Part shown: piece by piece, positions 27,780 to 54,246 of the stretch
Numbering within the stretch: position 1 is the first letter of the stretch
Layout of the letters: every line of letters starts with the position of its first letter
Source of the DNA: Armatimonadota bacterium
GTDB taxonomy: Bacteria; Armatimonadota; UBA5829; DTLH01
Direction: 5' to 3'
Length of the DNA stretch: 64,000 bases
Assembly (NCBI GenBank): GCA_016190935.1
Contig: JACPPP010000046.1
Span: 20,317-84,316, forward strand
Translations under genes and position numbers: made by a program
Notes under the pieces: model-generated
Databases searched by the model: none
What the model saw: the letters and a program-made list of their open reading frames with translations, nothing else
Told to the model about the DNA's origin: nothing

Positions 27780-27782
27780 CCG

Positions 27783-32245: not shown

Positions 32246-32461
32246 TCAGGCGTCTTGTTCGACGCCGCCACTTACACGCGCGTTAGCCAGTACCCACGAA
32301 TCCACCTCGGCCTTGCGAAACTTCCAGAGGCGGCCCAGCTTTATGGCTGGCATGCTCCTCCGATCAATCCACTTGTAGATCGTGTCCCGCTTGACACCTA
32401 AGTAGGCCGCGATCTCTCCTACAGAAAGCCAGCGATCATCGATACTGGAATCTACAGACAC
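32246..32461 (-). CDS. Excisionase/AlpA-family (MerR-like) HTH DNA-binding protein
   Basis: WLSVGEIAAYLGVKRDTIYKWIDRRSMPAIKLGRLWKFRKAEVDSW is a typical excisionase/AlpA HTH. Homologous (about 55 percent identity) to 50429-50653. Confidence 0.6.
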   Translation of the reverse strand: MSVDSSIDDRWLSVGEIAAYLGVKRDTIYKWIDRRSMPAIKLGRLWKFRKAEVDSWVLANARVSGGVEQDA

Positions 32462-34614: not shown

Positions 34615-34682
34615 AGCAGTGGTTCCTTCCCGCAATTCACAGACTTCCGCCCGAATGCGAGGCTGATCATCTGGAGGCAAGG

Positions 34683-35042: not shown

Positions 35043-35299
35043 AGGGGCCTCCGTCTGGTTAAGCGTCCTCTCCGGGCTCAAAGAGGACGCGAGGCTGATA
35101 GCAGGGGACGAGCCTAGTGAGTACATGATGTATATCATTGGTCGGAGTCATTGTCAATAGCGGTGCAGTTACCCCCTTGGGCCCCTGGGCAAGCAAGTTG
35201 ATTTCGTTTCCGGCGGTGTGCTACTATCGATAGGCTTGGGAAGCTGGCGAAGGACGATCTGACTTCGTGATAGAGGGGAGTCGTCGGGAGGAACCAACA

Positions 35300-37912: not shown

Positions 37913-38208
37913 CTTCGGTCCCCCGGCTGAGCCTAAACTTGGACGTCTCACATGTGGGGCCGGGACAAGAAGGGAGTTGGTGGGTCATAATGCTGGACGT
38001 GATCGGTCTGGCCACTGCTGTTTCCCGTCTTACAGGCTATAACATTGGGGACGTCATCGGTTGGCTTCGCAAGCGCCAGTTCTCGACGGCGCCCATGACC
38101 GTGACCACAGCCAGGCTGCTGGAGACCCTGACAAGACCAGACGACGAACTCACCGGTTGTTGGTACGTCTCGCAGTGGCGTTATCTATGGAGAAGTGCTC
38201 CCGCCTGA
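37909..38208 (+). CDS. Small hypothetical protein, ATGA-coupled to the PHP/TolB gene
   Basis: Start ATG overlaps the preceding stop (ATGA). No recognisable domain. Confidence 0.2.
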   Translation: MTSVPRLSLNLDVSHVGPGQEGSWWVIMLDVIGLATAVSRLTGYNIGDVIGWLRKRQFSTAPMTVTTARLLETLTRPDDELTGCWYVSQWRYLWRSAPA

Positions 38209-38495
38209 CAGTGGACAGAAGCGCCCTTCCATGTCGACGGGTACCTGTATGGGCCTTATAGGTTCCCCGACGAAAGATAGATAGAAATGTACGCTCGTCC
38301 TCAACTATTCACCTCGCCGAACGAGAAGGAGATGGGTGCCAAGACGCCTGAGAGACTTCTACAGCCGACGCCGGGCAATCGTTGACGGGCGGTGTACAAT
38401 GTTGAGCTTCACAGAGGTGCTCTCGGTGTTGCGTCTGCCCGCTGCCTTGTGCTTATGAACTCCGGTCACCGTCCACATACGGGACGCACGTCGGG

Positions 38496-38551
38496 TATCT
38501 GGAGTAACAAGAAGAATGAAAAGAGGAGGGACTCCTTGGCGGACATCCCTC
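38496..38551 (-). terminator. Candidate intrinsic terminator for the VWA-MoxR-nuclease operon (7-bp stem ggaggga/tccctcc followed by a U-rich tract on the minus strand)
   Basis: Plus strand 38524-38551 ggagggactccttggcggacatccctcc. On the minus strand the stem-loop is followed by tcttttcattcttctt. Confidence 0.3.
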
Positions 38552-38643
38552 CTTGACTCCCTGAACTCCGCGTTCTCTTTCCGCGTGGACATATGGCGCC
38601 TCCAGCCCCACGGGTACCTACGCGCCTTAGCCAGGGATTGGGA

Positions 38644-40194
38644 CTACGCACCCCGAATTGCTCTCAGGATGTTGCCAAGCTTCCAGGGGAGCTCGTCGGA
38701 GTTGCAGCAGACGATCCGGTCTTCGCCGAACATGTCCGTGACGTACCCTTCTGTGGTCTCATCCGGGTCCAGAAGGACTCCGATGACTTCCACCTTTCCA
38801 CGCAACTCCCGACAGACTCTCTTCCCGAGTTCGGCGTCGTTACACGCCCCGTCCGTAAGGCAGAGAACAAGCCTGATGCTCTCGGAACGGAGAGTCATAG
38901 GCACGGCGTGCGTTTGTATAGCCCGGCCCATGTCCTCGTAGCCGCAGCGCGCGGGAACAAGCCCGGCGACCAGTGCTTTGCCCCTCTCGCCTACCGCCGA
39001 GTCGGCGATCCTGAGGTTCTGAGGTGTGACCATGATCTCGTGGGGTATCCGAAGCTCCGTGCATACCAGATGCAGTGCCATGACAGCCCCGGCGACGGAC
39101 TCGATTCTGCTCGTGCCTGCGGAGTTGTGATTGAGCGAGGTCGAATGGTCAACGATCACCTTGAGCACCAGCGTGGGAGGAGCTTTGGGGCCGGCCTCCT
39201 CGGTCAGAAACGGTCGGTTCATATCCTTCAGATAGTCTCTCATCGAAAACCTGCCACCCCTTTCGGCCGGTTCCAGCCGGCAGGGCGACTCCTCCCACGA
39301 CAGTTCGTCGATCAGCTCCTGGACGAGCGGCGTCACCTTCTCCTCAAGCTGGATGTACGGCTTCGGTTCGATCGCTTCGTAGCCGCTTCCTTCTCTCCTG
39401 TCGTTGGGCAGAACTTCGCCGTCGAAAGGCTCCGGTTCGACCGGGCTATCGGACGTCGCGGTGCTCGAACCAAGTGGTCTGCCACACACTTTCTCGGCCT
39501 CGTCACCCGCGATCCTCTCGCCCTCGATGTGCCCGAGCCTGTCCATCAGGTCCGTAACCCACGGCGCGATATCTAGTTCGTGGATCCCGAGCAGTTCCAC
39601 AATCTTCTCCGAGTTGCGATAGACGACCTCAGCAGTGTCCGCCTCCCAGGACTCATAGACAAGCGGTTCGACCTTCTTCCAGATGGCCTGGTTTCTGGCG
39701 GAGAGACCGCCTTTCACCGGCTGGCCTGCCCTTCTCGCCCAGCGAAGTTGCAGGAAGTAGGCGACGACCTCGCCCGGACAGTCGGAAGTCTCGTCTATCG
39801 GCTTGGAATCCAGGTAGAACCTGTCGGAGAGCTTCTGGACGAGCCATCTGACTCCCGCAAACTCCTCGCTCATCCGCCGCTCAACCCTTTCGTCCTCCAG
39901 GATGTTTGCCACTCGCTTCACCAGCTCCGGAACCCTCTCAGGGTCGGTGAACCGGCGGTGTCCCGCCTCGTGCACCAGAAGAGCCTTGGTGAGCTGATAC
40001 TGCTCCGCCGCCGGCGCGGGGAAGATGTCGGGGTTGACGGCAATCCGCCGAGCGGTGAAATTGCAGTAGCCGCTCGGACAGCGGCTGCGGTCCGGCTCGA
40101 TAACAACGCGGTATGGCGCGACGCCCTGCATCGCCCGGCCAAAGACGATCAGCCGGTTTCTGATATTGTCCCATTCGTACCAGGGAACAGCCAT
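38644..40194 (-). CDS. DUF2201-type protein: N-terminal putative metallopeptidase-like domain (HEAGH) + C-terminal von Willebrand factor A (VWA) domain; MoxR partner
   Basis: LLVHEAGHRRFTD HExxH-like motif. C-terminal VWA with MIDAS-like VIVDHSTSLNHNS and LVLCLTDGACND. Start at Met 40194 (MAVPWYEWD) preceded by an aaggagg RBS. Confidence 0.65.
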   Translation of the reverse strand: MAVPWYEWDNIRNRLIVFGRAMQGVAPYRVVIEPDRSRCPSGYCNFTARRIAVNPDIFPAPAAEQYQLTKALLVHEAGHRRFTDPERVPELVKRVANILEDERVERRMSEEFAGVRWLVQKLSDRFYLDSKPIDETSDCPGEVVAYFLQLRWARRAGQPVKGGLSARNQAIWKKVEPLVYESWEADTAEVVYRNSEKIVELLGIHELDIAPWVTDLMDRLGHIEGERIAGDEAEKVCGRPLGSSTATSDSPVEPEPFDGEVLPNDRREGSGYEAIEPKPYIQLEEKVTPLVQELIDELSWEESPCRLEPAERGGRFSMRDYLKDMNRPFLTEEAGPKAPPTLVLKVIVDHSTSLNHNSAGTSRIESVAGAVMALHLVCTELRIPHEIMVTPQNLRIADSAVGERGKALVAGLVPARCGYEDMGRAIQTHAVPMTLRSESIRLVLCLTDGACNDAELGKRVCRELRGKVEVIGVLLDPDETTEGYVTDMFGEDRIVCCNSDELPWKLGNILRAIRGA

Positions 40195-40274
40195 TTCGGT
40201 TTTTCCTCCTTGCATAAAAGAATCGGGCCGCCCGAGTTGAGCGGCCCATAGAGTTACGGTTTTGTTTGCCTTAC

Positions 40275-41783
40275 CTACTTGGGCGTGTGAGCCTCGATCA
40301 GGTCGAGAAGCTGGTTGGCGATATCCTCCCGCAGATAGCCGTCCGCATCGGTTCCCGCCACCTGGTGCATCCAGGTGACCTTCGCCGCAGCTTTCAGCCT
40401 GGAGAGAACGGACTTGCCTTTCCCGCCCTTGCACTTCGTCGCCCAGGCAAAGAGCCCTCTCGGCGTGATCTCGCCGGCTAGCTCGCGGTTTCGCCTGAGC
40501 CTTCTGGTCTCGTTCGCCACTTTGACCATGACCGCCGCTGTATCGCGGTCGATCCCTGTCTCCGTGACAAGAAGATCCTCTTCGTCTTTGGGCGCAAGGT
40601 AACGGAACTCCAGCACGCAGGAGAAACGGTTGAGCAAGGCGGTGTCCAGAGCGTTGATCGCGTAACCTTTGCCCAGGTTCATCGCCATCACCGTCTGGAA
40701 CCCGGTCCTCACCTTCACTTCCTCCGACCCGTGCTCGGTCAGCACGACAGCACCGCGTGATAGGACCCCAAGAAGGATGTTCAGCGTCCTCGTGGGCATT
40801 CGGTTCGCCTCGTCGATGAACAGGTATCCTCCGGCCCTCATAGCCTGGACCAGGACCCCGTCCTTCCAGTGGAACCCGCCCCTGCCGTCGGGCACGAAGC
40901 CGCCCAGCAGATCGAACTCCTTCATGGATTCGTGGCCTTCGATGACGGAGACCGGCTTGCCAGATCTCGCCCTGTCGAAGGCCTCGAATGCGCAGAGCGA
41001 TTTGCCGGTGGCTGTAGGTCCGACCAGCAGGCAGTGCATCCCGAGTTCCAAGCTCTCGACGAGTTCGGCAAGCTGTGGGCCGCGGAAACGGCTTTTGACC
41101 GCTGCTGGCGCGGGCAGTTCCTCGGACAATGGCGCTTCTGCGCCGCTGCGATAACCCCTCAGTTTCGCCGCGTCGGTCAGCACCTGGGGATCGAGTGGTT
41201 CAGCCACTGCGACCTCAGGCGGGTAGGTGGCGTCCCGGATCTCGAAGGAGTCGAGCCTCTCCGGATCGTTTATGGCATCGCCCCCCCGCCACTTGGCCCA
41301 GTAGTAGAGCTCGTCTGCAAGATGCATCAGAAGCTCAAGATGCCAGTCGTCGACGGCGGGCGACGCAGCGCGATACACCAGCATTTCCTCGAGCGCGTCA
41401 AGTAAATCGCCGGCCTCGTCTTTGCAGACCAGGGCCTCGCCCAGAAGCAGCAGTCCGAGATGGTAGGTGACGTGTCCTTTTGGCAGGTAAACCTTGTTCC
41501 CTACCAGATAGCAGTGGTGGAAGTCGCTGCCCGACTGGGAAAGCGACCTCACCATCACGACTCCTTCCGGTTCAAGCCTCGAGACGCCGATGACGTCTCC
41601 TTTCAGTGCGACTACGCAGGCTTTGCAGAGCATGGCCGAAAGATGGCCAACGGCCCTGGTGTTCCGCCTGGCAGGGTAAGTGATCTCCTGGCCGCCACGA
41701 AGCTCGGGGAAGATGTCTACCTCTCGCTTTCGGGAGAACAGTATCTGAGTCACGGTTCTTCTGTCTTCGGCTGCAAAGGCCAT
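40275..41783 (-). CDS. MoxR-family AAA+ ATPase with an about 240-aa uncharacterised N-terminal extension
   Basis: Walker A CLLVGPTATGKSLCAFEA, Walker B GGYLFIDEANRMP, sensor region TVMAMNLGKGYAINALDTALLNRF, typical of MoxR/AAA_5. Confidence 0.7.
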   Translation of the reverse strand: MAFAAEDRRTVTQILFSRKREVDIFPELRGGQEITYPARRNTRAVGHLSAMLCKACVVALKGDVIGVSRLEPEGVVMVRSLSQSGSDFHHCYLVGNKVYLPKGHVTYHLGLLLLGEALVCKDEAGDLLDALEEMLVYRAASPAVDDWHLELLMHLADELYYWAKWRGGDAINDPERLDSFEIRDATYPPEVAVAEPLDPQVLTDAAKLRGYRSGAEAPLSEELPAPAAVKSRFRGPQLAELVESLELGMHCLLVGPTATGKSLCAFEAFDRARSGKPVSVIEGHESMKEFDLLGGFVPDGRGGFHWKDGVLVQAMRAGGYLFIDEANRMPTRTLNILLGVLSRGAVVLTEHGSEEVKVRTGFQTVMAMNLGKGYAINALDTALLNRFSCVLEFRYLAPKDEEDLLVTETGIDRDTAAVMVKVANETRRLRRNRELAGEITPRGLFAWATKCKGGKGKSVLSRLKAAAKVTWMHQVAGTDADGYLREDIANQLLDLIEAHTPK

Positions 41784-41789
41784 GGCTTG

Positions 41790-42587
41790 TCACTTCGGCC
41801 TCCTTCCCATCGCCTTGAGTACTGCGTCGGTTCTTGCCTCTTCTCTTCGCTTCAGTTCGGATGGCTTAGGCACGCCGTTCGGCCAGCAGGTGCCGGTGAA
41901 CGGACAGTAGCCGTCGCACTGCCACAGGCCCTCCAAGGTCACCCTCTCCGGGAGCTTTCCACCGTCAAGGGCGGCCTTCAGGTTCTTGAGCCTGGGTGTG
42001 AGCCAGCCCAGAACCTGCCTCACGCCCATCACCTGGACATCGACGCGTTTGACCTCGCTCATGTCGAAGTAAACGATCTCCAGCCTGTCTACCTCGTAGT
42101 GGGGCATCGCCAGATACCGGTACAGGTTGACCTGAAGAGCATGGTTCGCATACGGCTTGTCGTCCTTGGGGATTCTCTTTGTGCTCTTGTAGTCGACGAG
42201 CTTTCCGTGCTGGGGATAGATGACATCAGGATGGCCCGACAGGACGATCCCTGCCACGCTACGCTCGAACCTCCGCTCGCAGATTGCGCCGTCGGACTGA
42301 GCCTGAGCAATCACGGCGTGGAAGAGCTGGCCCCGGAAGGCGTAGTAGAGCTGGGAGGGGTCGAGGTAGATGTCAATTCGTGCTTCCAGCGCCACTTTCC
42401 GCAGGCAGTTGAGCAGGGAGGATACGGACAACCCCGCCTCCTCTCGGATGTTACGCTGCATGGCCGAGAGGATTGGATAGTCGAACTGGCAGGGATTCTC
42501 GTGCGAGGCGGCACATTCCAGACATTCGTCGAAGAGCAGGTCGCCCTTGCCCTTCGGACAGCGAAATCCTCTAATCACGTTTTTCAC
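41790..42587 (-). CDS. Cas4/RecB-like PD-(D/E)xK nuclease with four-cysteine (Fe-S-type) cluster
   Basis: GHPDVIYPQHGKLVDYKSTK (D...DxK). N-terminal Cys (CPKG...CLEC...C) plus C-terminal CDGYCPFTGTC (C-x3-C-x5-C), as in Cas4/AddB-type nucleases. Confidence 0.55.
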   Translation of the reverse strand: MKNVIRGFRCPKGKGDLLFDECLECAASHENPCQFDYPILSAMQRNIREEAGLSVSSLLNCLRKVALEARIDIYLDPSQLYYAFRGQLFHAVIAQAQSDGAICERRFERSVAGIVLSGHPDVIYPQHGKLVDYKSTKRIPKDDKPYANHALQVNLYRYLAMPHYEVDRLEIVYFDMSEVKRVDVQVMGVRQVLGWLTPRLKNLKAALDGGKLPERVTLEGLWQCDGYCPFTGTCWPNGVPKPSELKRREEARTDAVLKAMGRRPK

Positions 42588-42668
42588 CTCTTTCTGAGTG
42601 TGGAGTAAAGGAGGCCGATCCTCCCTGTGGGGGAAGATCGGCCAGAGTGGTGGTGGCCCCGGCGGGAT

Positions 42669-43046
42669 CTATGCAGCGTGTTCCTTGTAGTTCGGACAGC
42701 TCCAGAATGGGCCGTATTTGCCCTGGCGCTCCGTAACCGGGGAGCCGCAGGTGCGGCCGTTCTTCAGCTTCAGGTTGCAGCGCCTCTCGCCGTCCTCGTC
42801 GAGATAGGTCTTCTCGGGCCTTTCCTCCTCCTCGGAGTTGCCATGGTTCTCCTCCGGGACATAGCTTCTTCGCCTGAGCGGCACGCCCCCGGACTTCAAG
42901 ATACCAACCATGGTCTTCTTTGCCCTCGTCTCCAGCGCGGCTTCATCCTCATCACGAAGCGTGATCTGACACTCGAAGCCCTCTTTCGCATGGTAGACCG
43001 TGTTCCAGCTTGCCTGCGCCTCGTCCAAGTTTCTCACCTCCTTCAT
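42669..43046 (-). CDS. Small protein with topoisomerase-I-type C4 zinc-ribbon (CNLKLKNGRTCG...GKYGPFWSCPNY)
   Basis: C-terminal motif closely matches the Zn-ribbon found at the C-terminus of bacterial topoisomerase I/III (GKYGxFWxCxxYP). Confidence 0.4.
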   Translation of the reverse strand: MKEVRNLDEAQASWNTVYHAKEGFECQITLRDEDEAALETRAKKTMVGILKSGGVPLRRRSYVPEENHGNSEEEERPEKTYLDEDGERRCNLKLKNGRTCGSPVTERQGKYGPFWSCPNYKEHAA

Positions 43047-43368
43047 TTCCAGATGTCTGCTCCCGTCTGCTCGTTTCTTATGGCGAATACCTGGCCAAGA
43101 GTCCAGTCGACGCCTTCCCGCATCCGCAAGTCTTCGTCCCAGACTTCGGTCACAGCAGTCTCTGCTGCTTGCTCCGCCTCGCCTTCCGCGTCGGCTACGA
43201 CGCTCACAGAGACGGTAACGTCAAAGCACACTGTCCAGCGAGTCATTTCCTCGCCTCCATCCAGGCGTTTTCGTTGTAAGGTTCTGAGTTCCAGATTAAC
43301 CCATTGCAGCCTCAAGACAAGGGGGGACGATTTGCCGCTGCCGGCAACAGCGCCCTGCTTTTCCAGAA

Positions 43369-44673
43369 GTGGCCGGGTGCTATAGTGGGTCCATGAGAGC
43401 AGACTGCCATGAAGACAATTCGATCACCCCCTTCGGGGTCACCGACTACCGGGACACGAGGCTCAGGTTCGGCATCAAGCGGAAGGATCGCCGGGGCCAT
43501 ATGTATGTCATCGGCCAGACGGGGACGGGCAAGTCCACGCTGATCGAGAATATGGCCATCTCGGACATCCTGCGGGGGGAGGGACTGGCCCTCATCGACC
43601 CGCACGGCGACCTGGCGGAGAGCCTTCTCGACTCGGTGCCCGAGAAAAGGTTGGAGGATGTCATCTACTTCAACGCGGCCGACTCCGAGTATCCCGTGGG
43701 CATCAACCCTCTGGACAAGGTGAATGCCGATCTCCGGTCCCTTGTCGCCTCCGGCCTCATTTCAGTGTTCAAGAAGATCTGGCCCGATTTCTGGGGTCCA
43801 AGGTTGGAGCACATCCTGAGGTACTCGTTGCTGACACTCCTTGAGCGCCCCGATAGCACGCTTCAAGACGTGCCGCCGCTCCTGACGGACAAGGGATTTC
43901 GGACGAAAGTGCTGAAGAGCGTCACCGACCGGCAGGTGCACAGCTTCTGGCTGCTGGAGTTCGACAAGTACACCGCGTGGCTCAAGTCCGAGGCGGTCTC
44001 GCCGGTCCTGAACAAGATGGGGCAGTTCCTGGCAAGCGTGCCGATCAGGAACATCGTCGGCCAGAGCCGCAGCAGCTTCAAGTTGCGGCAAGTGATGGAT
44101 GAGGGGAAGATCCTGATAGTCAGGCTTGCCAAGGGAAGGATCGGGGAAGACAACTGCGCTCTGCTCGGAGCGTTGATAGTCACCAGAATCATGCTCGCGG
44201 CGCTCAGCCGCTCAGACATACCAGAAGGAGAGCGCAGGCCCTTCTATCTCTACGTCGACGAGGTCCACAACTTCTTCACCGACTCGTTCATAGACATGCT
44301 GTCCGAATCCAGGAAGTATGGGCTGTGCCTGGTGCTGGCGCATCAGTATATCGATCAGCTCGACGAGAAGATGCGCTCGGCCATCTTCGGGAACGTAGGA
44401 ACGATCGTCTCCTTCAGGGTTGGAATGACCGACGCCAGAGTACTGGCCCAGCAGTTCGAGCCTGTCTTCGACGGGGCCGACCTCATCGGCCTGCCGAACC
44501 ATCACATCTACCTGAAGCTGATGATAGACGGGGTCACGTCCCGTCCGTTCAGCGCGAAGACACTACCGCCGGCCGCCGGAGCACACTCCTGGAGGAAGGA
44601 AATCACTGAGTTCTCAAGGGCGAAGTACGGGAGGCCGAGGCAGGAAGTCGAGCGTCAACTCATACGCCGGTAG
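43369..44673 (+). CDS. TraD/VirD4-like or HerA/FtsK-superfamily (DUF87-like) ATPase
   Basis: Walker A HMYVIGQTGTGKSTLIENM, Walker B FYLYVDEVHNFF. About 430 aa, divergent from the upstream operon. Confidence 0.5.
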   Translation: MAGCYSGSMRADCHEDNSITPFGVTDYRDTRLRFGIKRKDRRGHMYVIGQTGTGKSTLIENMAISDILRGEGLALIDPHGDLAESLLDSVPEKRLEDVIYFNAADSEYPVGINPLDKVNADLRSLVASGLISVFKKIWPDFWGPRLEHILRYSLLTLLERPDSTLQDVPPLLTDKGFRTKVLKSVTDRQVHSFWLLEFDKYTAWLKSEAVSPVLNKMGQFLASVPIRNIVGQSRSSFKLRQVMDEGKILIVRLAKGRIGEDNCALLGALIVTRIMLAALSRSDIPEGERRPFYLYVDEVHNFFTDSFIDMLSESRKYGLCLVLAHQYIDQLDEKMRSAIFGNVGTIVSFRVGMTDARVLAQQFEPVFDGADLIGLPNHHIYLKLMIDGVTSRPFSAKTLPPAAGAHSWRKEITEFSRAKYGRPRQEVERQLIRR

Positions 44674-44810
44674 CCGCTTCGAGCCGGATGTGCGTCCTGA
44701 CCAATGCCTTGACACATACCCTGACGTCATGGTGTTCTCCGTGAACCCCCGAAGCTCATACCCCAGTTGTCAGCCGGTGCTGGTCGTTCGGACTGCGGGG
44801 CGCTGGAACT

Positions 44811-46370
44811 CTAGCCAGCGCTCATGGCCAGCGGCATGCACCTCTCAGGCTTCAGCACAGTCATCCTGCTTCCGAACGTCTGCTCGAACCACTCCGGCGT
44901 CTGTGTATGCACGGGGATGATGTGCTTCGGCTGCATCGTGTCGATCAGCTCAGCCAGCGCCACGCCTGTGATATGGCCGGAGGCGTGGTAGCGGACCTCG
45001 GACTCCTTGTCTTCGGGATCTCCGACAAGAGTCATCCCGAATCTCGACACCCAGTTCCGCAGCCGACGGAAATCATACTCCTGCTCTTCCGAGTACAGTT
45101 CGCTGGATGAGTAGAGGTAGATGCCCCCAGGAGGAGGATTGATGTCCACGAGGTGGCTCAGGTCGAAGAAGCTGAAGCACAGAATGTACCGGCCGGGCTC
45201 ACAGCCTATGTCCTCGGGCTCCAGCGATTTTCCGCCACACATGCTATGAACATGCTGCTCCCATCCGTCCATCCGGGCCTTCGCCTTCTCGTAGAGCATT
45301 ATCCTGTCATCAGCGGCGGGTTCCGGAACGGCAGCATCGACCAGGTGCATAGCCTCCAGAAGCAACACATCCTTCGCCGTCAGGACCAGCCGCCGATCAG
45401 TCTCCTCCGCTATCCGCAGGAAAGAGAGCAGCCGCTCCACGTTTCTCGGTCCGAAGTCAGCTATAACGAACTGACCAGCCGCAGCCCTCACCGCTACCAC
45501 CGCGTTGGCATATACGTCGTCCTCGGTGGCGGACGTATCCTTGTGGATATGGGTACCCTCGGTGATGAGGACAAGCGGATGCAGCTTCGCCGCAGCTTCC
45601 GCAAACTGCCGCGTCAGCGCTCCGTTACGTCCGTGGACGCGTAGGTCGCCGGTATAGACGACGTATCCTTCGTCGGTCTTGATCGTGAAGCCTGTTGCGC
45701 CGAAGATCGAATGATCGACAGGGTAGCCGCAGACTTCAAGACTGCCTATGCAGGTGCAGGTACCCGGCATCTGTGCCTGAAGCCCTCTCGATGAGGTGAA
45801 GGCGGTCTCCCAGAAGTCGGATGCGCGGTCGGATAGCTCAGCCGAGTTGAGCAACAGGAATGGCCTTTGCACTGCATCACAGCCTCTCGCCGCGCCGACC
45901 GCCCCCCCGTTGCAGGCCTTCGGGATTGCGTAGCAGACCTCCGTTTCCATCGTACTCCTGCCCGAATCCTGAATAGCTTTGGTAATGAACGTGGTCATGG
46001 CGCCGCATGCTATGGGGATCTCCGGCTTGAGGAATGATATGTAGCCTGAGTGGTCGAGGTGGCCGTGCGATAGCAGCACTCCCTGCACGTCCACATCACG
46101 AATCGAGCATCGAGACTGCACCCGATCCCAGACGCCGTCATCTGGCACGAGATCGTCACGGTAGATACCCTTCAGCGGGGGCAAGAGGTCCATCTCCAAT
46201 GGATCGAGCAACCCCTTCACGCCGCGTGGCTGAAGGAACTCCTGATAGAACTTCTCCTTCGAGGAATAGCATATCCCGAAGTCTAGGAAGACGGCGGTGC
46301 CGCCAGACTCGACCAGGATCTTGTTCCCGCCGATGCAATCGGCTCCGTCATAGCATGTGATGGTGACCAT
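44811..46370 (-). CDS. Metallo-beta-lactamase-fold hydrolase (RNase J/beta-CASP-like nuclease candidate)
   Basis: HxHxDH motif in VLLSHGHLDHSGY and further His/Asp ligands downstream. 519 aa. Confidence 0.65.
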   Translation of the reverse strand: MVTITCYDGADCIGGNKILVESGGTAVFLDFGICYSSKEKFYQEFLQPRGVKGLLDPLEMDLLPPLKGIYRDDLVPDDGVWDRVQSRCSIRDVDVQGVLLSHGHLDHSGYISFLKPEIPIACGAMTTFITKAIQDSGRSTMETEVCYAIPKACNGGAVGAARGCDAVQRPFLLLNSAELSDRASDFWETAFTSSRGLQAQMPGTCTCIGSLEVCGYPVDHSIFGATGFTIKTDEGYVVYTGDLRVHGRNGALTRQFAEAAAKLHPLVLITEGTHIHKDTSATEDDVYANAVVAVRAAAGQFVIADFGPRNVERLLSFLRIAEETDRRLVLTAKDVLLLEAMHLVDAAVPEPAADDRIMLYEKAKARMDGWEQHVHSMCGGKSLEPEDIGCEPGRYILCFSFFDLSHLVDINPPPGGIYLYSSSELYSEEQEYDFRRLRNWVSRFGMTLVGDPEDKESEVRYHASGHITGVALAELIDTMQPKHIIPVHTQTPEWFEQTFGSRMTVLKPERCMPLAMSAG

Positions 46371-46428
46371 CCGCCTTCACCTCCTGTAGTTGCCATCGTG
46401 GCTTGATCAGCCAGGATGGTGGCAGGAC

Positions 46429-49017
46429 TTAGCTCAGGTTGTACTTCGATTTGCGCAGAATATACGGCTCCCTACCGCCCTCCAGAACCTGAAGGGCCGG
46501 CTCCTGCGCGCATTCAATGCCACCCAGGCATCTGACTGTTGCGCTGGTGGAGTCGCTCTCCACGTGAATCATCATGTCCGTATCTGAGGACACGGCGACC
46601 GTGTTGTTGTGCGTGGTCAAGATGAACTGCCGCTGTGTCTTGTTCTGGCGCAGTTTCTGAGCCACGTCCTCCCAGACAGTCTTAATGTCCAGGGCGTCTT
46701 CCGGTTGGTCTATGATGATCGGCCTCTCTCCCCGCGACAGGGCTATGATGAGCAGCGCAGTGCATTTCTGACCAACGGACAATTCGTCCAGCGTCGCATA
46801 GGACCCGCTATCCTTCCTGAACTTGATCGTCGGCTCGTCCTGTGGGTACCAACCGTGCTGGAGGCGGAGCAGCGGCTGAAGGCTCTCGGCGCTCATGAGC
46901 CTGCTGACCATAGTGTCAGCCGTTGTCTCCGGGATGCCGGCCTCTGCCGCAAGGCCGGCGGCGTCCTTGGTAAGGACAAGATCCACGAACCGTCGCGGTG
47001 AGAGCTTCTCGCCGACATCTTCAATATAGTCGCCCTTGACTCTGGAGCCGGTAACAAGCTCCTTGAGCTGCTCCTGAAACTGCCCGGAATCGGTTGAGTG
47101 CTTTACCTCCAGCCGAAGTTTCCGGCCAGACTGCTTAGCCAGGTCTGCATAAACTGTGGCCCGCTCGTTGTACAGGTCATCGTAGAGCCTGTCGAGAGCA
47201 TCGAGAGATTCCGTTCTCTCAGTTTGAAGCTTGCCACACTCGGCAGCACGTGCCTTGCGCTGGCTGATGCGCTTTTCCAGCTTCGACAGCTCCTCCTCAG
47301 CCTTCGCCCGCTCCTCGTTCAACTTCTTCTCGTCGGCAACAAGCGTCTCCGCGTAGGCCTTCTCGGCTGCGTTATACTGCGGCATCCACGATGCTCGCCT
47401 TGCCTCGATCAGCGACTTATGCGACTCCATGATCGCGATGGCGGCATCCAGCTTCTCCCGCACGTCGCTTCGCGCCTTCGCCGCGCTGTCCGTGGCCCAC
47501 TTGAGGTCGGGGTCCTCTTCTGCCGTCTCCTCTGCTGCAGAACCTTTGATGTCGTCCCTGGCGGCAGTGATCAGTTCCTTTACGCCATCGGCGTCCTGCT
47601 CAATGCCGCCGAAGGCGTTCTTTTTCTGCTTCGCAGTCTCGAACGCGGCCCGCAGCTTCGCTCGTTCCTCGCCACCCGCGAGAGCGGTGTCGATGTCTCT
47701 GATCTTGCCCTTGTACGTCTCGGCTTCCTTAATGATCTCCGTGACCTCCGTAGCGGCCGCGAGCGCGTCGCCGAGATCTTTGTCATTCTGATCAAGAGCG
47801 GCCTGGACTTGGGCGATCTTGCGCTGATGTGATGGAACGTCCACGAAGGAGTCCGTCAGCAACAGCTGCGCCCGCGTGTCCTTCGCAATCTCGATGATCT
47901 CCGTCTGACTGTATGCCAGGATCGGGAAAAGCTCCGGGATGTGGCCCTGGTACTGGATGCTTGCCGCCGTGTCAGTGCACGTGACGCTTCCGTCCGTTGC
48001 ACGGCGCAGAGCATACGTCACCCCCGCCGCCGTCAGCAACTGCAGTTCGACATGTCCGCTCGGTCCGAGGCACTTATCGACCTTCTTCCTGTGGTCTGCA
48101 AGGATGGTCGGTTCGTTAGAGGGCTGCCCTAAAGCGAATCTCATGAACTCTATGATGAGTGATTTGCCTGCACCTTTGCCACCGAAGATGCTGTTCAGGC
48201 TATCGTTTAGGTAGAGCTGCTGCCCATCAAGGAAGCCTCCCACCACGTTCATGCTGAGTATCCGGGGGAAGGCGTCCTGTGGTGTCCAGTCCATGGGCAT
48301 TATGCGTACCGACGGGTCGATGAAGCACTGTCTGAGACTTTCGAGCCTCAGGTCGCTGTCCAAGCGCATCCAGCACCTCCGCAGGCCGATGCCATCAAGC
48401 GAGTGCTTCTTCGGATCCGATGCGTCCGGGTTATCCGATATCTGGTAACAGGCCGGTATCCTGGAGAAACCGTGGCCTTTGTCGAAGTCCGCCGGAAGAG
48501 AGGGCCCAGTGGTCTCAACGGCATCGTACCAGGGGGCGTTAAGCGTTGCTATGCGTGTCTGCCCATTCAGCTCCCGGAAGACGCCTTTCGGGCCGTCGCA
48601 GTGCGCAAACACAACAAGCCCGCCCCAGTCGCGGATGGTCTTCGACACCTCCTCCAGAGTCTTCGAACACAGCGTCTCCGGCTTGCCCCGCTCATCAGGC
48701 TTGATGCCAAGCGCCGCGAGCAAACCGTTGACGTATTCGGTATCCCGGTCTATGTCAAACAGGGCCACGACATGTACGCCCGGCGCTACCGTGATCTCCA
48801 CTCCCGGGAACACGGCAAGCGCAGAACCAGCCACAGCCGACCTCACCTTGTCTATCCACTCGCCTGTGTTATGGTCGGTGATGGCTATAGCGGCAAGTCC
48901 TTTGCCAACGGCGGCTTCGACAACCTGTTCCGGCGTAACAGTCTTGTCCGCAAAGCACTTGGACGCCGGTGTATGTATGTGGAGATCAACACTTCGAAAA
49001 GCCAAACCCTTTCCCAT
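46429..49017 (-). CDS. PHP-domain phosphoesterase fused to an SMC/RecF/SbcC-like ABC ATPase with central coiled coil (single-chain SbcCD-like nuclease-ATPase)
   Basis: N-terminal PHP motifs VDLHIHTPAS...ITDHN. Walker A IFGGKGAGKSLIIEF. About 300-aa coiled-coil region. C-terminal signature/Walker B/D-loop LSVGQKCTALL...IIIDQPEDALD and H-loop ILTTHN. Confidence 0.65.
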   Translation of the reverse strand: MGKGLAFRSVDLHIHTPASKCFADKTVTPEQVVEAAVGKGLAAIAITDHNTGEWIDKVRSAVAGSALAVFPGVEITVAPGVHVVALFDIDRDTEYVNGLLAALGIKPDERGKPETLCSKTLEEVSKTIRDWGGLVVFAHCDGPKGVFRELNGQTRIATLNAPWYDAVETTGPSLPADFDKGHGFSRIPACYQISDNPDASDPKKHSLDGIGLRRCWMRLDSDLRLESLRQCFIDPSVRIMPMDWTPQDAFPRILSMNVVGGFLDGQQLYLNDSLNSIFGGKGAGKSLIIEFMRFALGQPSNEPTILADHRKKVDKCLGPSGHVELQLLTAAGVTYALRRATDGSVTCTDTAASIQYQGHIPELFPILAYSQTEIIEIAKDTRAQLLLTDSFVDVPSHQRKIAQVQAALDQNDKDLGDALAAATEVTEIIKEAETYKGKIRDIDTALAGGEERAKLRAAFETAKQKKNAFGGIEQDADGVKELITAARDDIKGSAAEETAEEDPDLKWATDSAAKARSDVREKLDAAIAIMESHKSLIEARRASWMPQYNAAEKAYAETLVADEKKLNEERAKAEEELSKLEKRISQRKARAAECGKLQTERTESLDALDRLYDDLYNERATVYADLAKQSGRKLRLEVKHSTDSGQFQEQLKELVTGSRVKGDYIEDVGEKLSPRRFVDLVLTKDAAGLAAEAGIPETTADTMVSRLMSAESLQPLLRLQHGWYPQDEPTIKFRKDSGSYATLDELSVGQKCTALLIIALSRGERPIIIDQPEDALDIKTVWEDVAQKLRQNKTQRQFILTTHNNTVAVSSDTDMMIHVESDSTSATVRCLGGIECAQEPALQVLEGGREPYILRKSKYNLS

Positions 49018-49204
49018 CGTTACCCTCCGCTGTAAGCCAGATATGCTCGCCTGAAGCGGCTACACAGCCGAACCTGGGGTACCCTTGCCGTACGCCGACA
49101 ACTCTTGAGTAGCGCATATTGGCGAGGACACCCTTCACCGTCTTGGCGATGCCCTGTACGGTCTTCACGATGGCACCTCGTCGCCAGGAGCGTAATGGAA
49201 AGCT

Positions 49205-50293
49205 CTACCAGTAGAGCCGCTTGTAGGCCTCGAAATCAAACTTGTGCGTGCGCTTGACGTGAGCGTCAATCCCGTACCTCATGCATCGCCCGCAGAACTG
49301 ACATTGCCTGCCAGGGCTGGGCGGCGGCCAATCCTCCCGCGGCACTACCTGTACGGCCAGGGCCGGATCTATGGGCAGATCGTCCGGAGGAGGTCGCGGA
49401 TCGCCCCGTCGCGGCGGCGGATCATACGCCTCCTGCGTCGGGACGTAGATTGCGCCTTCCAGTAGCCACGTCTCCTTATAGCGGTCCCTCAGGAATCCTG
49501 TGTGCGTCTTCAGGTTGTCTCCGGTCGCAAGCCAGATGGAGTTGATGCATGCGAGAACGGCGTCGCGGGCATCCTTCCAGTTGCGACCTTCAGGTGTGTA
49601 GTTCTCAACATTCACGCGTACACCTATTCTAAGCGTGGCGACCGCTATATCTTGTGTGGACGGTGCCTCTAGCAGACCGAGAGCTGACCTGACGGCTGCC
49701 GGATATGTTTCGACGACGGTTGGGTGCTCTTCAGTGGGCTCGTCCCACGGGCAGATTGCGCACGAGCCGTGGAGGCGGTGCAAGAGGGCAGTGCCCCTGT
49801 GAACCATCGGGATCATGTCCGGGTTCACAGTATGTATGCAGCTTTGCCCGCCGAGATCGCGGTCGGTTTGCCGAAGAGGTTCGTCTGCCGCTTCCGGTGG
49901 GCGGCGCAAGGCTTCTGCACACCGTAGGAGCTGTATCACGGATTCTGAGACCTGGGTAGTCTCGAAATCTGTTAGCTTCCAGGCAGCCGCGAGCAACCGT
50001 AGGAACACCTGAGGAACTCTATCCAATATCCGCCACACGTTGCGAGACTGACGCACATCCCTGAACCACATATTGCACAACTCTGTCGGGAGCGAGAATG
50101 GGAAATCCAGCGCCCAGATTGACGGTCCCGAGCGACCGACCTCGTCCTGTACTTGATCACGCGACAGGTTCTGCCGTACACGGATTGTCCATTCACCAGC
50201 GTCAAATCTCCCCGATGCTAACGCTATGTTCGCTTGCGGTCTGTCGTCTCTTCCGGCGCCGCTGAAGTCAACCCCGTAACATCTAGTGATCAC
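49205..50293 (-). CDS. DUF429-like (predicted RNase H-fold) protein
   Basis: N-terminal MITRCYGVDFSGAG resembles the DUF429 N-terminal strand-turn motif. Weak assignment. Confidence 0.3.
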   Translation of the reverse strand: MITRCYGVDFSGAGRDDRPQANIALASGRFDAGEWTIRVRQNLSRDQVQDEVGRSGPSIWALDFPFSLPTELCNMWFRDVRQSRNVWRILDRVPQVFLRLLAAAWKLTDFETTQVSESVIQLLRCAEALRRPPEAADEPLRQTDRDLGGQSCIHTVNPDMIPMVHRGTALLHRLHGSCAICPWDEPTEEHPTVVETYPAAVRSALGLLEAPSTQDIAVATLRIGVRVNVENYTPEGRNWKDARDAVLACINSIWLATGDNLKTHTGFLRDRYKETWLLEGAIYVPTQEAYDPPPRRGDPRPPPDDLPIDPALAVQVVPREDWPPPSPGRQCQFCGRCMRYGIDAHVKRTHKFDFEAYKRLYW

Positions 50294-50428
50294 GCCGCCA
50301 CCTCGGTGTCGGCGACGATCTGCCTCAGCAGGCCATCGGCCTCCGCCTCAAGTGCGAGGATACCGTCGGCGATGCCCCAGATGACACTCATGATGCCGTT
50401 ATGTTGAGATTCGTCCATTGACTCCCTC

Positions 50429-50653
50429 TTACATGCTCCTGTCGCGCCTCTTCGCCACGGATTCAGTGGACGCAGTGCCGCCCTTGGCACCGCCTGAACG
50501 CACCCAGGCATCGACTTCCTCTTTTCGAAACTTCCAGTGACGGCCTACCTTGTGCCCGGGCATGTCCCTGTGGACGACCCAACGGTACACGCTCTCCTTC
50601 ACCACGCCGAGATAGGTGGCAATCTCATCTACCGACAGCCATCGGTCTTCCAT
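50429..50653 (-). CDS. Excisionase/AlpA-family HTH DNA-binding protein (paralog of 32246-32461)
   Basis: WLSVDEIATYLGVVKESVYRWVVHRDMPGHKVGRHWKFRKEEVDAW. Confidence 0.6.
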   Translation of the reverse strand: MEDRWLSVDEIATYLGVVKESVYRWVVHRDMPGHKVGRHWKFRKEEVDAWVRSGGAKGGTASTESVAKRRDRSM

Positions 50654-51072
50654 AGTTGGCTGGCTCCACAGAAACTACAATGGCCGTCTGCCGCAACGAC
50701 GCATCGTGACGGACAGTGGACGTTGTATCGCGCCTGCTCGCCCACGGCATTATAGCATCAAAAGCTCTGCAATGGCCAGCCATCCAGCTATACTGGGTAT
50801 GACTACAGATGACTGTTGTTGACCAAGCTCTCATTGTCGGCGGTGATCCAGCAAGAGAGACGATAGCAGAACAGTAGTGATGGATAGGCGCAGGCAGTTC
50901 GGTTTGCCGAGCACACCGTCGAGCGAAGCAAGCGGCAACGCCTGGTGAAGGAGACACGCCTCCGGGCTTGACGGGGGTTGACGATCACCCTGCGGACTCT
51001 TTAGAATTTGGAGTGTCGGTTGACGCATCGTCTGCCGGTATGCAGCGCTGTCTGAATTGCGAGTGCGGGACC

Positions 51073-52554
51073 ATGGGTGAAGCAAAGCAAGTCGGAATCT
51101 GGATCCGAGTATCGACAGAAGACCAGGCTAGAGGCGAGAGCCCGGAGCATCACGAGAAGCGGGCACAGGATTACGCCGGGTTCAAGGAGTGGCAGGTCAG
51201 GGAGGTCTATCATCTGGAGGGTGTAAGCGGCAAGGCTGTCATGAGCCACCCCGAGACCCAGCGGATGTTGTCGGACATCCAGTCGGGACGCATCACCGGA
51301 CTTATCTTCTCCAAACTTGCTCGTCTCGCCCGCAATACGAGGGAGCTGCTTGAGTTCTCCGAGCTATTCAACGCTCACGGCGCAGACCTTATTTCTCTCC
51401 ATGAGTCCATCGACACCTCCACCCCTGCCGGCCGTCTGTTCTACACTATGATTGCGGCAATGGCTCAGTGGGAGCGCGAGGAGATCGCAGAGCGCGTTTT
51501 GGCTTCAGTACCGATACGCGCCAAGCTGGGTAAGCCGCTTGGAGGCAAAGCACCGTTCGGCTACCGCTGGGAAAACAAAGTCCTGGTTCCCGACCCCGCT
51601 GAAGCTCCGATAAGGAACCTGGTATATGAGCTTTTTCTCGAGCATCGCCGGAAGAAGAGGGTGGCCAGGCTCCTGAATGAAGCTGGCTACAGGACCAGGA
51701 GCGGAGTGGAATTCTCCCACTCGACGGTCAGCAAGATGCTGCGCGATCCCACGGCCAAAGGCCTTCACAGGGCGAACTACACCAGGCTCGTCAAGGGCCA
51801 GTGTGTCCTGAAACCAGAAAGCGAGTGGGTCTACACCACCGTCGAGGCTATCGTGCCGGAACAACTCTGGACCGAGTGCAACCAGATCCTTGATGACCAG
51901 GAGAAGCGCAACAAACGGCCAGCTCGCAAGACGGTGCAGCTCTTCAGCGGCGTCGTCCTGTGCAGTTGCGGCGGCAAGATGTATGTGCCTTCCAAGTCCC
52001 ACAAGTACACGTGTCGGAAATGCCTTGCCAAGATAGATGTCGACGACCTCGAAGAGGTATTCCACGAGCAGCTCAAAGCCTTCTTCCTCTCACCAGATGA
52101 GCTCGACAACTATCTGGCCAAAGCCGACCGGGTTATCCAGGAGAAGCAAGACTTGTTGCAGACCCGCTTCGATGAGGAGCGCAAGCTGAAGCAGGAAATG
52201 GACCGAGTCTACAGATTCTATATGGACGCGGAGATAACCCCAGCCGGCTTTGGGGCAAGATACAAGCCTTTGGAAGAAAGGCTGGCCCAAATCGAAGACC
52301 AGATCCCGGAGGTGCAGGCCGAGATAGACTTTCTCAAGATCCAATACCTCTCAAGCGACGAAATCCTGCACGAAGCCAGAGACCTCTATGCCAGATGGCC
52401 AGACCTTACTTACGAACACAAGCGTCAGATCATCGAAAGCATCACCCAGAGCATCATCATCGACAAGGACGAAGTGATCATCAACCTCGCCTACCTACCG
52501 TCGTCCTCGGAACTGATAGCAAAAAGTGCGACTAACCCTCGGGATGGGAGATGA
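51073..52554 (+). CDS. Large serine recombinase
   Basis: Start at ATG 51073 (MGEAKQVGIWIRVSTEDQ) with catalytic RVST. Recombinase domain, zinc ribbon (CSCGGKMY...CRKC) and C-terminal coiled coil. The upstream N-terminal extension in the ORF track is judged non-coding. Confidence 0.8.
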   Translation: MGEAKQVGIWIRVSTEDQARGESPEHHEKRAQDYAGFKEWQVREVYHLEGVSGKAVMSHPETQRMLSDIQSGRITGLIFSKLARLARNTRELLEFSELFNAHGADLISLHESIDTSTPAGRLFYTMIAAMAQWEREEIAERVLASVPIRAKLGKPLGGKAPFGYRWENKVLVPDPAEAPIRNLVYELFLEHRRKKRVARLLNEAGYRTRSGVEFSHSTVSKMLRDPTAKGLHRANYTRLVKGQCVLKPESEWVYTTVEAIVPEQLWTECNQILDDQEKRNKRPARKTVQLFSGVVLCSCGGKMYVPSKSHKYTCRKCLAKIDVDDLEEVFHEQLKAFFLSPDELDNYLAKADRVIQEKQDLLQTRFDEERKLKQEMDRVYRFYMDAEITPAGFGARYKPLEERLAQIEDQIPEVQAEIDFLKIQYLSSDEILHEARDLYARWPDLTYEHKRQIIESITQSIIIDKDEVIINLAYLPSSSELIAKSATNPRDGR

Positions 52555-53015
52555 ACACCAGGGTGAATGCGGACGGAATCGACATCAACCGCCAGTTTGC
52601 GACAAGACGCCCGGCGCCGGAGGCGGCGCTGATAATGCGCGCGCTCGAAGGCAGGTGCTTTGACCTTGTATTTGAGATGCACGAGGATGTGGACTCGAAC
52701 GGCTTCTACCTTTATGAACTTGTGGATGATCCGGCGGATTCGCTCGGAGAGGCAATAGTCGATGCTGTTGCCTCTTGCGGTTTTCCAATCAACTTCGACG
52801 AATGCATTGAGGGATCGGATGCTAAAGGAGGCATCATCAGGCCGAAGAAGTTCCGCTTCCGCAAGACACACCTGCCAAAAGCGGTCTATACTTACAGAGC
52901 ATGCGGCGGCCATGTCATCACATTGGCGCCGCCAGCGTCGACGCTTTCGTTCGAGGATAGGGTGAAGATTGAGCTGGCGGGGCTCAATGTCGCGCTCAAG
53001 TCGCTTCTCAGGTGA
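52551..53015 (+). pseudogene. C-terminal fragment of an M14-family (succinylglutamate desuccinylase/aspartoacylase-like) zinc peptidase gene, apparently 5'-truncated at the recombinase junction
   Basis: NADGIDINRQF (compare the DLNRNF motif of M14) and downstream FEMHED, but no upstream HxxE zinc-ligand segment. ATG overlaps the recombinase stop (ATGA). Confidence 0.4.
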
Positions 53016-53100: not shown

Positions 53101-54246
53101 CTAATAACTGTGATTCCGATATGCAGTGTCCAGAGGTCCGCATTGCGGGTCGCAAAACGCCCTGTTGGCCAGATTTGCAGACAAATCTAAATAATGCTTA
53201 ACCGCTTCGGGCGGCATGTTCCAGGGAATGTGGTTTCCGATAGACATCATATAACCGCCGGTCATGGATGCCGTTTCGATCATGTTCTTGACCATGGCCA
53301 GTATCTCGTCGGCGTTATTTCGCATGAGTATGCGATTATCTCCTTCACCCGCAAGAAAACAGTTCTCATGTTTTCGGGCGATGGCTTTGAAGTCTGTATA
53401 CGGCTCCGAGATAATACCTCTTGCGCCACAGGCGAATATATCGTCCGCGTACGCATCCATACAGCCGTCTACCATAAAGATAACTTCCTTGCCCGCCGCT
53501 TTCAACAGACTCCAAAATTCCTCATAGCGAGGGAAGATATGCCGATACATCCATTCCCTGGAACAAACTGGGCCGCGAGACGTGACAATGTCGTCATGAC
53601 AGACGACGAAGTTTACCGGCAATCGCGAGAATACACGAAAAACCCGTCTGTTGATCTCAGCAAACTCGTCCATAATCCGGGTGAAGCGATCGTCAAGGCA
53701 TGTCTGGAGGAACAGTTCCCAACCGAATGTGAGCAAGGGCCACATGAACATCGTGTTGTAGAATGAGACGCTGACGGCCGTTTCTTTCGGCGCCTCGTCG
53801 CCCCATTCAGCCGGGTACAACTGTCGATACTCCTGATAGAGCTTTTCCTCATCCCGATAATCGTGCGATTCCACCACTGGAATGGTGGTGAAATCTCCCT
53901 GCTCCAGCGGGGAAAAGGCGAAAACTTCTTCTTCGTTCTCGAACTGCCTGCCCCAATCCCAATCCCAGCTCTCGCCCTCACCCCAGCGTACGCTATGGCG
54001 GCCCTCACCATCGGGCTGGCTGCTCTCGTCATCGAAGCTCTCCGGGCGGGGTATGGAGGTATCATCTTCCGGAATCGGCAGATCGAGGATAGGATATAGC
54101 TGCTTCATTCTCTCCCTGCAGAGCTTGGGATGCTCGTAGTAATCGATCCCAGTGATATAGGTCTCCGCGTCCGGGCAGGACCAGAATTCCCAGTGGGGAA
54201 TCCGCTTCGGGCCCAGTCCCATAAAGGCTGCGTACTTGTCATCCAT
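53101..54246 (-). CDS. Uroporphyrinogen decarboxylase (URO-D) family protein
   Basis: Overall length (381 aa) and C-terminal pattern FVVCHDDIV...VIFMVDGCMD...ACGARGIISEPYTD resemble URO-D/methyltransferase-MtaA family. Weak. Confidence 0.4.
   Translation of the reverse strand: MDDKYAAFMGLGPKRIPHWEFWSCPDAETYITGIDYYEHPKLCRERMKQLYPILDLPIPEDDTSIPRPESFDDESSQPDGEGRHSVRWGEGESWDWDWGRQFENEEEVFAFSPLEQGDFTTIPVVESHDYRDEEKLYQEYRQLYPAEWGDEAPKETAVSVSFYNTMFMWPLLTFGWELFLQTCLDDRFTRIMDEFAEINRRVFRVFSRLPVNFVVCHDDIVTSRGPVCSREWMYRHIFPRYEEFWSLLKAAGKEVIFMVDGCMDAYADDIFACGARGIISEPYTDFKAIARKHENCFLAGEGDNRILMRNNADEILAMVKNMIETASMTGGYMMSIGNHIPWNMPPEAVKHYLDLSANLANRAFCDPQCGPLDTAYRNHSY

Follow-up and report, generated by a model that had tools for sequence, protein, structure and literature searches.

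A serine recombinase gene with a probable attachment site inside its reading frame borders a truncated M14 peptidase gene in an Armatimonadota genome

The subject of this work is a junction between a recombinase gene and a broken peptidase gene in a metagenome-assembled genome (MAG) of an Armatimonadota bacterium. It lies in a 64,000-nucleotide (nt) stretch of contig JACPPP010000046.1 (positions 20,317 to 84,316 of the forward strand), which was analysed as a whole and is called the window here; positions are counted from its first letter. The coding sequence of the recombinase, recombinase B, ends ...CGG GAT GGG AGA TGA. As a first-pass annotation of the window had reported, the TGA at 52552-52554 overlaps the ATG at 52551-52553 of a 154-amino-acid (aa) open reading frame (ORF), 52551-53015, related to M14 peptidases. 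A small HTH_17 gene (HTH, helix-turn-helix) is transcribed divergently from the recombinase gene, and may encode a regulator or directionality factor. Genes of ordinary metabolism (URO-D-like, MFS, GH38 mannosidase, SDR, ADH) lie to the right of the junction, and defence and mobile-element genes to its left (Table 1). The GC content is 0.59-0.61 at 38-51 kb but only 0.52-0.53 at 53-57 kb. This fall and the change of gene content bear out the island boundary that had been proposed at about 53 kb.

Recombinase B has the features of a large serine recombinase. The GIWIRVSTEDQ motif marks its resolvase-type serine catalytic domain, which matches Resolvase (PF00239, E 3.3e-31) over residues 44-182 of a 528-aa ORF, the frame being open further upstream as far as TTG 50968. 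The Recombinase domain (PF07508) was also matched in Pfam (E 4.1e-17), and the recombinase zinc ribbon (PF13408) weakly, at 18.1 bits against a cut-off of 25.3 that relatives exceed. The nearest NCBIfam models are CcrB, CcrC and XisF, each far under its cut-off. Homologues number 5864 at E<1e-20. Recombination of attP with attB is the activity predicted for this enzyme.

The 154-aa ORF has no Pfam match of its own, even at E 10. A protein search with it found 96 homologues, mostly from Armatimonadota and annotated as M14 family metallocarboxypeptidase or MpaA, and nearly all are 250-265 aa long with PF24827 and PF00246 (M14). The ORF aligns solely to their residues ~100-258, and aligning it together with 15 full-length homologues puts the window sequence in columns ~100-262 only. 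What is left in the window is the C-terminal 60% of an M14/MpaA-like carboxypeptidase of ~256-262 aa. This fragment is 58-76% identical to members of the MpaA / AstE-AspA-like branch of M14, ends at the usual position for the family, and keeps all family-invariant residues of its part (DxNRxF, EMHED, FRKT, CGGH.T, PP). Unlike those members it has no HxxE: the alignment confirms the suspicion that the segment with these zinc ligands (GIHGDEP) is missing, and only the EMHED histidine is retained. The fragment is best read as a gene remnant and not as a functional member of the family. Without two of the zinc ligands, a protein of 154 aa is not likely to work as a peptidase, so any translational coupling via the ATGA most likely has no consequence.

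The first-pass annotation had described the M14-like ORF from its ATG onwards. The truncation stands, but M14 similarity begins 24 nt upstream of the ATG, at 52527. The M14 frame in the window reads ...KKCD*PSGWEMNTRVNADG, compared with FPCDNPSGWERNTRENADG in homologues, and the junction must therefore fall within the final ~10 recombinase codons. The codon at 52551 is native to the peptidase gene and encodes an internal Met, since homologue P0008 has Met at the same position (SGWEMGTRE). The idea that the recombinase supplied a start codon to the truncated gene is not upheld: the recombinase stop is the +1 reading of the peptidase codons GAG ATG AAC, and a second copy of the junction, described next, has CTT where the window has ATG. 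The ATGA overlap is an incidental by-product of two reading frames.

The same junction occurs in L017, a Logan contig of 7.3 kb assembled from another sample. The recombinase encoded there, P0098, is the closest match to that of the window (79% identical) and is followed by ...SKR|CDNPSGWELGTRENAEGVDLNRWF..., an M14 gene broken at the same CDNPSGWE codons. The junction reads ATAGCA-AAAG-GTGCGACAACCCC-TC-GGGGTGGGAAC, and the recombinase acquires 14 host-encoded codons past the crossover, compared with four in the window. Mobile-element genes precede this junction too, so the same recombinase/peptidase arrangement was again found with a mobile element attached. Between the window and L017 M14 fragments, nonsynonymous and synonymous differences per site are 0.23 (pN) and 0.70 (pS, saturated). 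With pS saturated at this pN, the two hosts are independent, and the fragments diverged as functional genes, with no decay since the interruption. The presence of one junction in two independent assemblies means that it is neither chance nor a mis-join.

The reciprocal product was found in a third assembly by an exhaustive search with the nearest full-length M14 homologue. In L101, the 105-aa ORF P0264 comprises M14 residues 1-100 ending ...FPCDNPSG, followed by CAPFL-stop. The DNA reads ...GTGCGACAATCCA-TC-AGGTTGTGCCCCC-TTTT-TGTAAT, with TC between the M14 5′ arm and a second arm (P′), and an HTH ORF follows. L101 carries the attL complementary to the window-type attR.

The origin of both arms is apparent from the wider recombinase family. 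We surveyed 80 loci of relatives 61-70% identical to the window recombinase. Six of the 80 (including L042, L076, L084, L086 and L095) carry an intact attP inside the recombinase ORF itself. The family attP is a 48-bp dyad, ATGGCA-N4-13nt-NN-13nt-N4-TGCCAT; that of L042, ATGGCA-ACTG-GGCAACGCAACCT-CA-TACCTGCGTTGCC-TTTT-TGCCAT, is a perfect 23+2+23 dyad. At these loci the frame stays open through the attP and adds ~100-165 aa (~150 in L042) that contain XRE-type HTH repeats, one or two per protein. The extended ORFs match proteins of 633-656 aa among the homologues of the window recombinase; 11 of the top 120 have such C-terminal HTH_3/HTH_31 domains, and in Pfam the fusion proteins combine Resolvase, Recombinase and two HTH_3 domains. 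By comparison, the window recombinase would be the integrated, truncated form of the ~650-aa recombinase-HTH fusion of its relatives.

Most integrated relatives are in comM, a known target of serine recombinases according to Durrant et al. At least 53 of the 80 loci are comM junctions by a strict pattern, and several more are close variants. Their recombinases end ...YLPSSSE(L/M)MAxxQRNxR(D/G)SWxxxA-stop in most loci, and the DNA 3′ of the stop is antisense comM/YifB (...NGVLFLDELPEF...LRQPLEDG...FPARFMLVAAMNP). The integrated copies are identical to the attP form up to ...AACCTCA, after which host DNA begins; their final 6-7 codons, together with the stop (SWPPPA-stop), are antisense to comM FMLVAAMNP. 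The other end is seen in L102-L104, where the 3′ part of comM (135 aa, minus strand) passes through CA into a P′ arm, GGGGTGTGATACC-TTTT-TGCGAT, and a separate HTH gene of 144 aa begins there at a P′-encoded ...IPFC motif. The family presents the intact dyad attP (in L042, L076, L084, L086 and L095) together with hybrid sites, the attR in at least 53 relatives and the attL in L101 and L102.

The first 23 nt of the window junction are in register with the left half of the family dyad, ATGGCA-N4-GGCAACGCAACCT-CA-TACCTGCGTTGCC-N4-TGCCAT. ATAGCA occupies 52516-52521, AAAA 52522-52525, and GTGCGACTAACCC 52526-52538. This register would place the crossover on the TC at 52539-52540, so that the last four recombinase codons and the stop are host DNA. 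The host side begins GGGATGGGAGATGA (52541-52554) and reads GWEMNTR in the M14 frame. Its GGGAT start resembles the comM-type B′ arms (GGGATTC or GGGGTTC), those of the U32 type starting GGGCTGC. A TC dinucleotide with 13+4+6 spacing fits the window, L017 and L101. An in-frame TAA at 52533-52535 is present in the window and absent from L017 and every homologue, which argues that this stretch is element DNA. When the window P arm is joined to the L101 P′ arm, the result is an uninterrupted frame, ...AKSATNP-QVVPPFCNVILRAPKPLPRTYP..., parallel to the family's ...QRNLIPALPFCHITLKGQKPPSPAYP.... The attP of the window element could accordingly be reconstructed as ATAGCAAAAAGTGCGACTAACCC-TC-P′ arm.

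These observations very probably mean that 52516-52563 is the attR of a large island that a serine recombinase inserted into an M14 gene, with an attP in the recombinase ORF, so that both genes were split. The insertion point in the M14 (MpaA-like) gene would be at the codons for C-D-N-P-S-G, and the 48-bp attP would sit between the recombinase body and its C-terminal tandem XRE-type HTH. Because the attP is inside the ORF, recombination with attB would split the host gene and the recombinase-HTH gene in a single event. The recombinase body would stay at the right end, terminating in R-D-G-R-stop taken from the +1 frame of the peptidase S-G-W-E-M-N, while the HTH module (P0217, MBI2842096) would end up at the left end as a gene of its own, beside the 5′ peptidase fragment. 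The island would hold ~58 genes, with its right-hand 52.5 kb in the window. Insertion of a recombinase-bearing element into the peptidase gene had been suggested from the window alone, and the full-length homologues, the same break in L017 and the reciprocal half in L101 now support it. The read-through of the recombinase to the element end had been considered unusual; it is real, but it is a family-wide consequence of an attP inside the ORF and not a peculiarity of this locus.

The left end of the island is beyond the window. As the first-pass annotation had also found, the matching 5′ M14 fragment is absent from the window, here by tblastn. Neither this fragment, nor a copy of the junction in either orientation, nor an orphan HTH extension turned up when the window was searched for a partner site by tblastn and blastn-short; all matches were chance 9-12-mers. 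A lead came from the Logan contig L001, which, like L098 of the same run (SRR12113390), encodes proteins identical to those of this MAG. On L001 an open frame homologous to the HTH extension precedes P0021 (L001 343-1113, MBI2842097), a full-length M14 paralog 65% identical to the window fragment. A search with this open frame found P0217, which belongs to the same MAG, is 137 aa long and carries the name "helix-turn-helix transcriptional regulator". Its sequence matches residues 507-629 of the fusion protein P0105 (650 aa; E 5e-31) and, judged from L001, P0217 is co-directional with P0021. GenBank accession numbers follow the gene order of the contig. MBI2842152-55 are the HTH_17 gene, the recombinase, the M14 fragment and the URO-D-like gene at the right end, and P0217 and P0021 come 13 and 12 numbers before the RuvC-like gene at window 740-1300 (MBI2842109). 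The order places the left end ~13 genes beyond the window start, for an island of ~58 genes and, as a rough estimate, ~65-70 kb. There, the 5′ part of the M14 gene would be expected to pass via TC into a P′ arm, approximately GGGTTAGTCGCAC-TTTT-TGCTAT, with a frame leading into P0217. The HTH ORF of L101 is 64% identical to P0217.

Several points weigh against this reading. First, an attL with a 5′ M14 fragment is placed on this contig by accession order and by the homology of P0217. Second, no empty attB from a close relative came out of a scan of the genome collection, in which every M14 locus recovered was distant, at 36-58% identity to the query P0002 (55-58% for the best eight); the nearest intact loci are 55-60% identical and have no synteny with the right flank of the window. 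Third, the window P arm and the host B arm agree at 10-12 of 13 positions (TGCGAC-AACCC), and the crossover could sit up to ~15 nt further left; attB or attP would be needed to place it more finely than 52521-52545. Fourth, an additional integrase and recombinase in the island may mean that it is an accretion of several elements and not one unit. Finally, the data show no sign of present-day excision, and any continued mobility would be a matter of prediction.

In the strongest alternative, the insertion did take place but long ago, and it has become fixed; the island would be a decayed, immobile remnant of several elements whose left end was lost or rearranged, and P0217 and P0021 would belong to a different element. 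The island is indeed very large and composite, with three recombinase genes; the module next to the L017 recombinase sits inverted and 48 kb from the recombinase in the window; and in L104 no recombinase lies within 10 kb of the comM-type attL. Decay, however, is not what the sequence at the junction looks like. No frameshift or stop interrupts the recombinase ORF, the P arm or the M14 fragment, and the invariant residues of the fragment are all kept. Moreover, P0217 is the very module expected at the partner end, it is on the correct side of the window and, as judged from L001 and not from the window itself, it is co-directional with P0021. We consider this alternative unlikely. It is far less probable still that the 154-aa ORF is a genuine short protein, an element-encoded accessory translationally coupled to the recombinase: it is intact, begins with an ATG in the ATGA overlap and has a protein annotation (HYX78_02010), but its close homologues are all full length (~258 aa), it is without the HxxE ligands, M14 similarity continues upstream of its ATG past a stop codon, L017 has no ATG at that position, L101 has the matching 5′ half fused to the other end of an element, and relatives with an intact attP carry the HTH extension at the junction position and not an M14 segment. 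A metagenome assembly or binning chimera of an element contig with an unrelated chromosomal contig is hardly credible. The source is indeed a MAG, and many contigs of related elements break ~120 nt past the crossover, which shows that assemblers have trouble there, but the junction is in register nucleotide for nucleotide in the independent L017 assembly, its reciprocal is in L101, and the join is exactly where the attP architecture of the family predicts it.

Table 1. Features of the window at and to the left of the recombinase-peptidase junction, with the first host gene to its right
Feature	Position	Strand	Basis, accession or remark
Island interior, composite	1..52538	.	Left end beyond the window; Pfam scans, accession order
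Regulatory module: HTH_31 (XRE), HTH_36, ~150-aa protein	1327-2921	-	Followed by the RuvC-like gene
Tyrosine integrase	8708-9955	+	Pfam
HTH_17 gene just downstream of the second serine recombinase	32246-32461	-	Pfam
Second, unrelated large serine recombinase	33019-34884	-	Pfam; 621-aa ORF
TraG/TrwB/VirD4-like ATPase	43369-44673		E 1e-10
Small HTH_17 gene (excisionase/AlpA/MerR-like)	50429..50653	-	PF12728, E 1.2e-15; MBI2842152
Large serine recombinase B	51073..52554	+	493 aa from ATG (NCBI start); MBI2842153
Probable attR junction	52516-52563	+	P arm, TC, B′ arm; only attR seen for the window's own element
Putative element-side attR half-site (P arm)	52516..52538	+	ATAGCA-AAAA-GTGCGACTAACCC; encodes recombinase residues ...IAKSATNP
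Predicted crossover dinucleotide TC	52539..52540	+	Register with family attP; uncertainty 52521-52545
Putative host-side half-site (B′ arm)	52541..52563	+	GGGATGGGAGATGAACACCAGGG; supplies the last recombinase codons (R)DGR and stop
Host M14/MpaA-like carboxypeptidase 3′ fragment	52539..53015	+	Residues ~100-258; annotated ORF 52551-53015 is MBI2842154 / HYX78_02010
First host gene right of the junction, URO-D-like	53101..54246	-	PF01208, E 3.5e-11; MBI2842155 / HYX78_02015

The intact M14 paralog near the predicted left end deserves comment. P0021 was considered as a restored hybrid gene, with a host 5′ part and an element 3′ part, and this was rejected. Its site DNA, TGCTGCAATCCAAGCGGCTAT, has no core in common with the attR, its GC content is uniform, and it follows the HTH orphan, which puts it inside the element. 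The serine codon of P0021 at the crossover is AGC instead of TCN, so it has no TC dinucleotide. L104 offers a parallel at 12396-13922, two genes inside a comM-type attL, where a full-length comM (508 aa) has NPCFCG instead of NPCPCG. These two cases suggest that intact target copies carried by the elements could be insertion-resistant replacement alleles. An element-borne target copy is not a general rule, as five attP-form loci have varied downstream cargo and no comM. A further candidate, a 148-aa "3′ fragment" look-alike (P0083, L099 158-925), was also set aside: it is a full-length, distant M14/DUF2817-like gene with one in-frame stop (...SHGYEPAAPLAA*KLLLENN...), and the stop is a pseudogene mutation or a sequencing error and not a recombinase insertion.

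Elements with serine integrases are known that insert into conserved protein-coding genes such as comM (Mg-chelatase-like). The window system shares with them the Resolvase, Recombinase and zinc ribbon domains, insertion within a coding sequence, and a ~48-bp dyad attP with a central dinucleotide, and most members of its family are in comM. It differs in its target, an M14/MpaA-like gene, in its predicted TC in place of CA, and in the attP inside the recombinase ORF. The closest parallel in mechanism comes from tyrosine integrases. SSV-type ("suicidal") integrases of archaeal viruses and elements have the site within the integrase ORF, and integration splits the integrase gene to opposite ends of the element (PMC7253208). 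In contrast to SSV, where the integrase gene itself is broken in two, the window enzyme is a serine recombinase whose body stays intact and from which only the C-terminal HTH is detached. In myxophage Mx8, attP is in the 3′ part of the phage gene intP, and integration swaps the C-terminus for a short host-encoded tail, giving intX. Mycobacteriophage BPs has its attP in the 3′ part of the repressor gene, where integration likewise exchanges the end of the protein for a short host-encoded tail, and its immunity depends on integration (PMC3694055, PMC4557955). Mx8 and BPs both use tyrosine integrases; the gene cut in BPs is a repressor, and the piece removed from the recombinase in the window system is a repressor-like XRE domain. 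By analogy, the window system would combine the Mx8 theme (integrase cut) with the BPs theme (repressor). It works like these attP-split genes but, given its serine chemistry, is not a member of their group.

A literature search returned no description of a serine recombinase with an attP in its own ORF, although failure to find one is not proof of novelty. Gene splitting by attP placement appears to be undescribed for serine recombinases. We tentatively propose, with more doubt than confidence, that the free element of the family encodes a ~650-aa recombinase-XRE fusion with the attP between the two parts, that uncoupling them by integration is a built-in switch of the architecture, possibly for directionality or immunity, and that insertion-resistant target copies belong to the same scheme. 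After integration, a tail-swapped recombinase would be left at one end and a stand-alone XRE protein, downstream of the 5′ fragment of the host gene, at the other. The family would comprise thousands of members in many phyla, most of them in comM. If the proposal holds, serine recombinases would have their own equivalent of SSV-type integrases and of the integration-dependent immunity known from BPs.

As an event in the life of a mobile element the insertion is ordinary, and it adds an M14 peptidase gene to the targets of serine recombinases. The part worth following up is the family-wide placement of the attP, together with the intact M14 copy beside the attL. An attachment site within the reading frame of a very abundant family means that the protein of the integrated element differs from that of the free element. 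Any effect of the detached XRE domain, or of its loss from the recombinase, on directionality, expression or immunity would amount to a control principle new to serine integrases. There are also practical uses. In annotation, the attP can be read off the 3′ end of the recombinase gene, and short "HTH regulators" beginning ...PFC... flag an attL. In engineering, relatives built on one attP scaffold offer CA, TC and GG dinucleotides, with comM, M14, U32-peptidase and RHS-like targets.

Two of these targets were observed at single loci. In L020 (~3380-3430), the same P-arm register is joined to an antisense U32 peptidase gene (...GRRANRGECTQPC|) with the dinucleotide CA. In L023 (~2500-2560), it is joined to RHS/YD-repeat-like sequence with the dinucleotide GG, and GTGC...AACCC is common to the L023 and window P arms despite the different target. 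With comM (CA) and M14 (TC), these loci would amount to a natural series of retargeted recombinases that share one attP scaffold.

The island holds a varied cargo, identified by Pfam only. It includes a CBASS-like set (SAVED effector, SMODS cyclase, HORMA, AAA ATPase), an Ssp/Dnd-like set (DUF4007, a 1154-aa ATPase, PAPS reductase), a KAP NTPase, a PHP-SMC/AbiEii-like ATPase and a PHP-beta-propeller protein. The defence intervals are 10001-14422, 26985-32154, 6594-8681, 46429-49017 and 35267-37912. The tyrosine integrase and the second serine recombinase make the island look like an accretion of several mobile elements. The regulatory module is 42-59% identical to the one directly upstream of the L017 recombinase (L017 3601-5194), and it may be an element-type backbone module or a relic of a second related element. 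Apart from the TraG/TrwB/VirD4-like ATPase, neither a relaxase nor a type IV secretion system set was identified among the genes of the window, which leaves ~13 island genes outside it.

Two minor observations concern the comM-inserted relatives. In L087 (~7440-7500), the P arm is followed by comM in sense orientation (ACPCGFLGDPR) instead of the usual antisense 5′ part, and this odd junction is possibly an inversion or an attL-like product. Finally, contigs with a comM insertion often end 87-99 nt past the recombinase stop, ~120 nt past the crossover (L031, L034, L037, L039, L041, L044, L065, L069, L072, L078, L089 and others). Such ends would be expected from a de Bruijn assembler with k ~127 if occupied and empty comM sites, or different elements, coexist. 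If so, the contig ends indicate insertion polymorphism in those communities.

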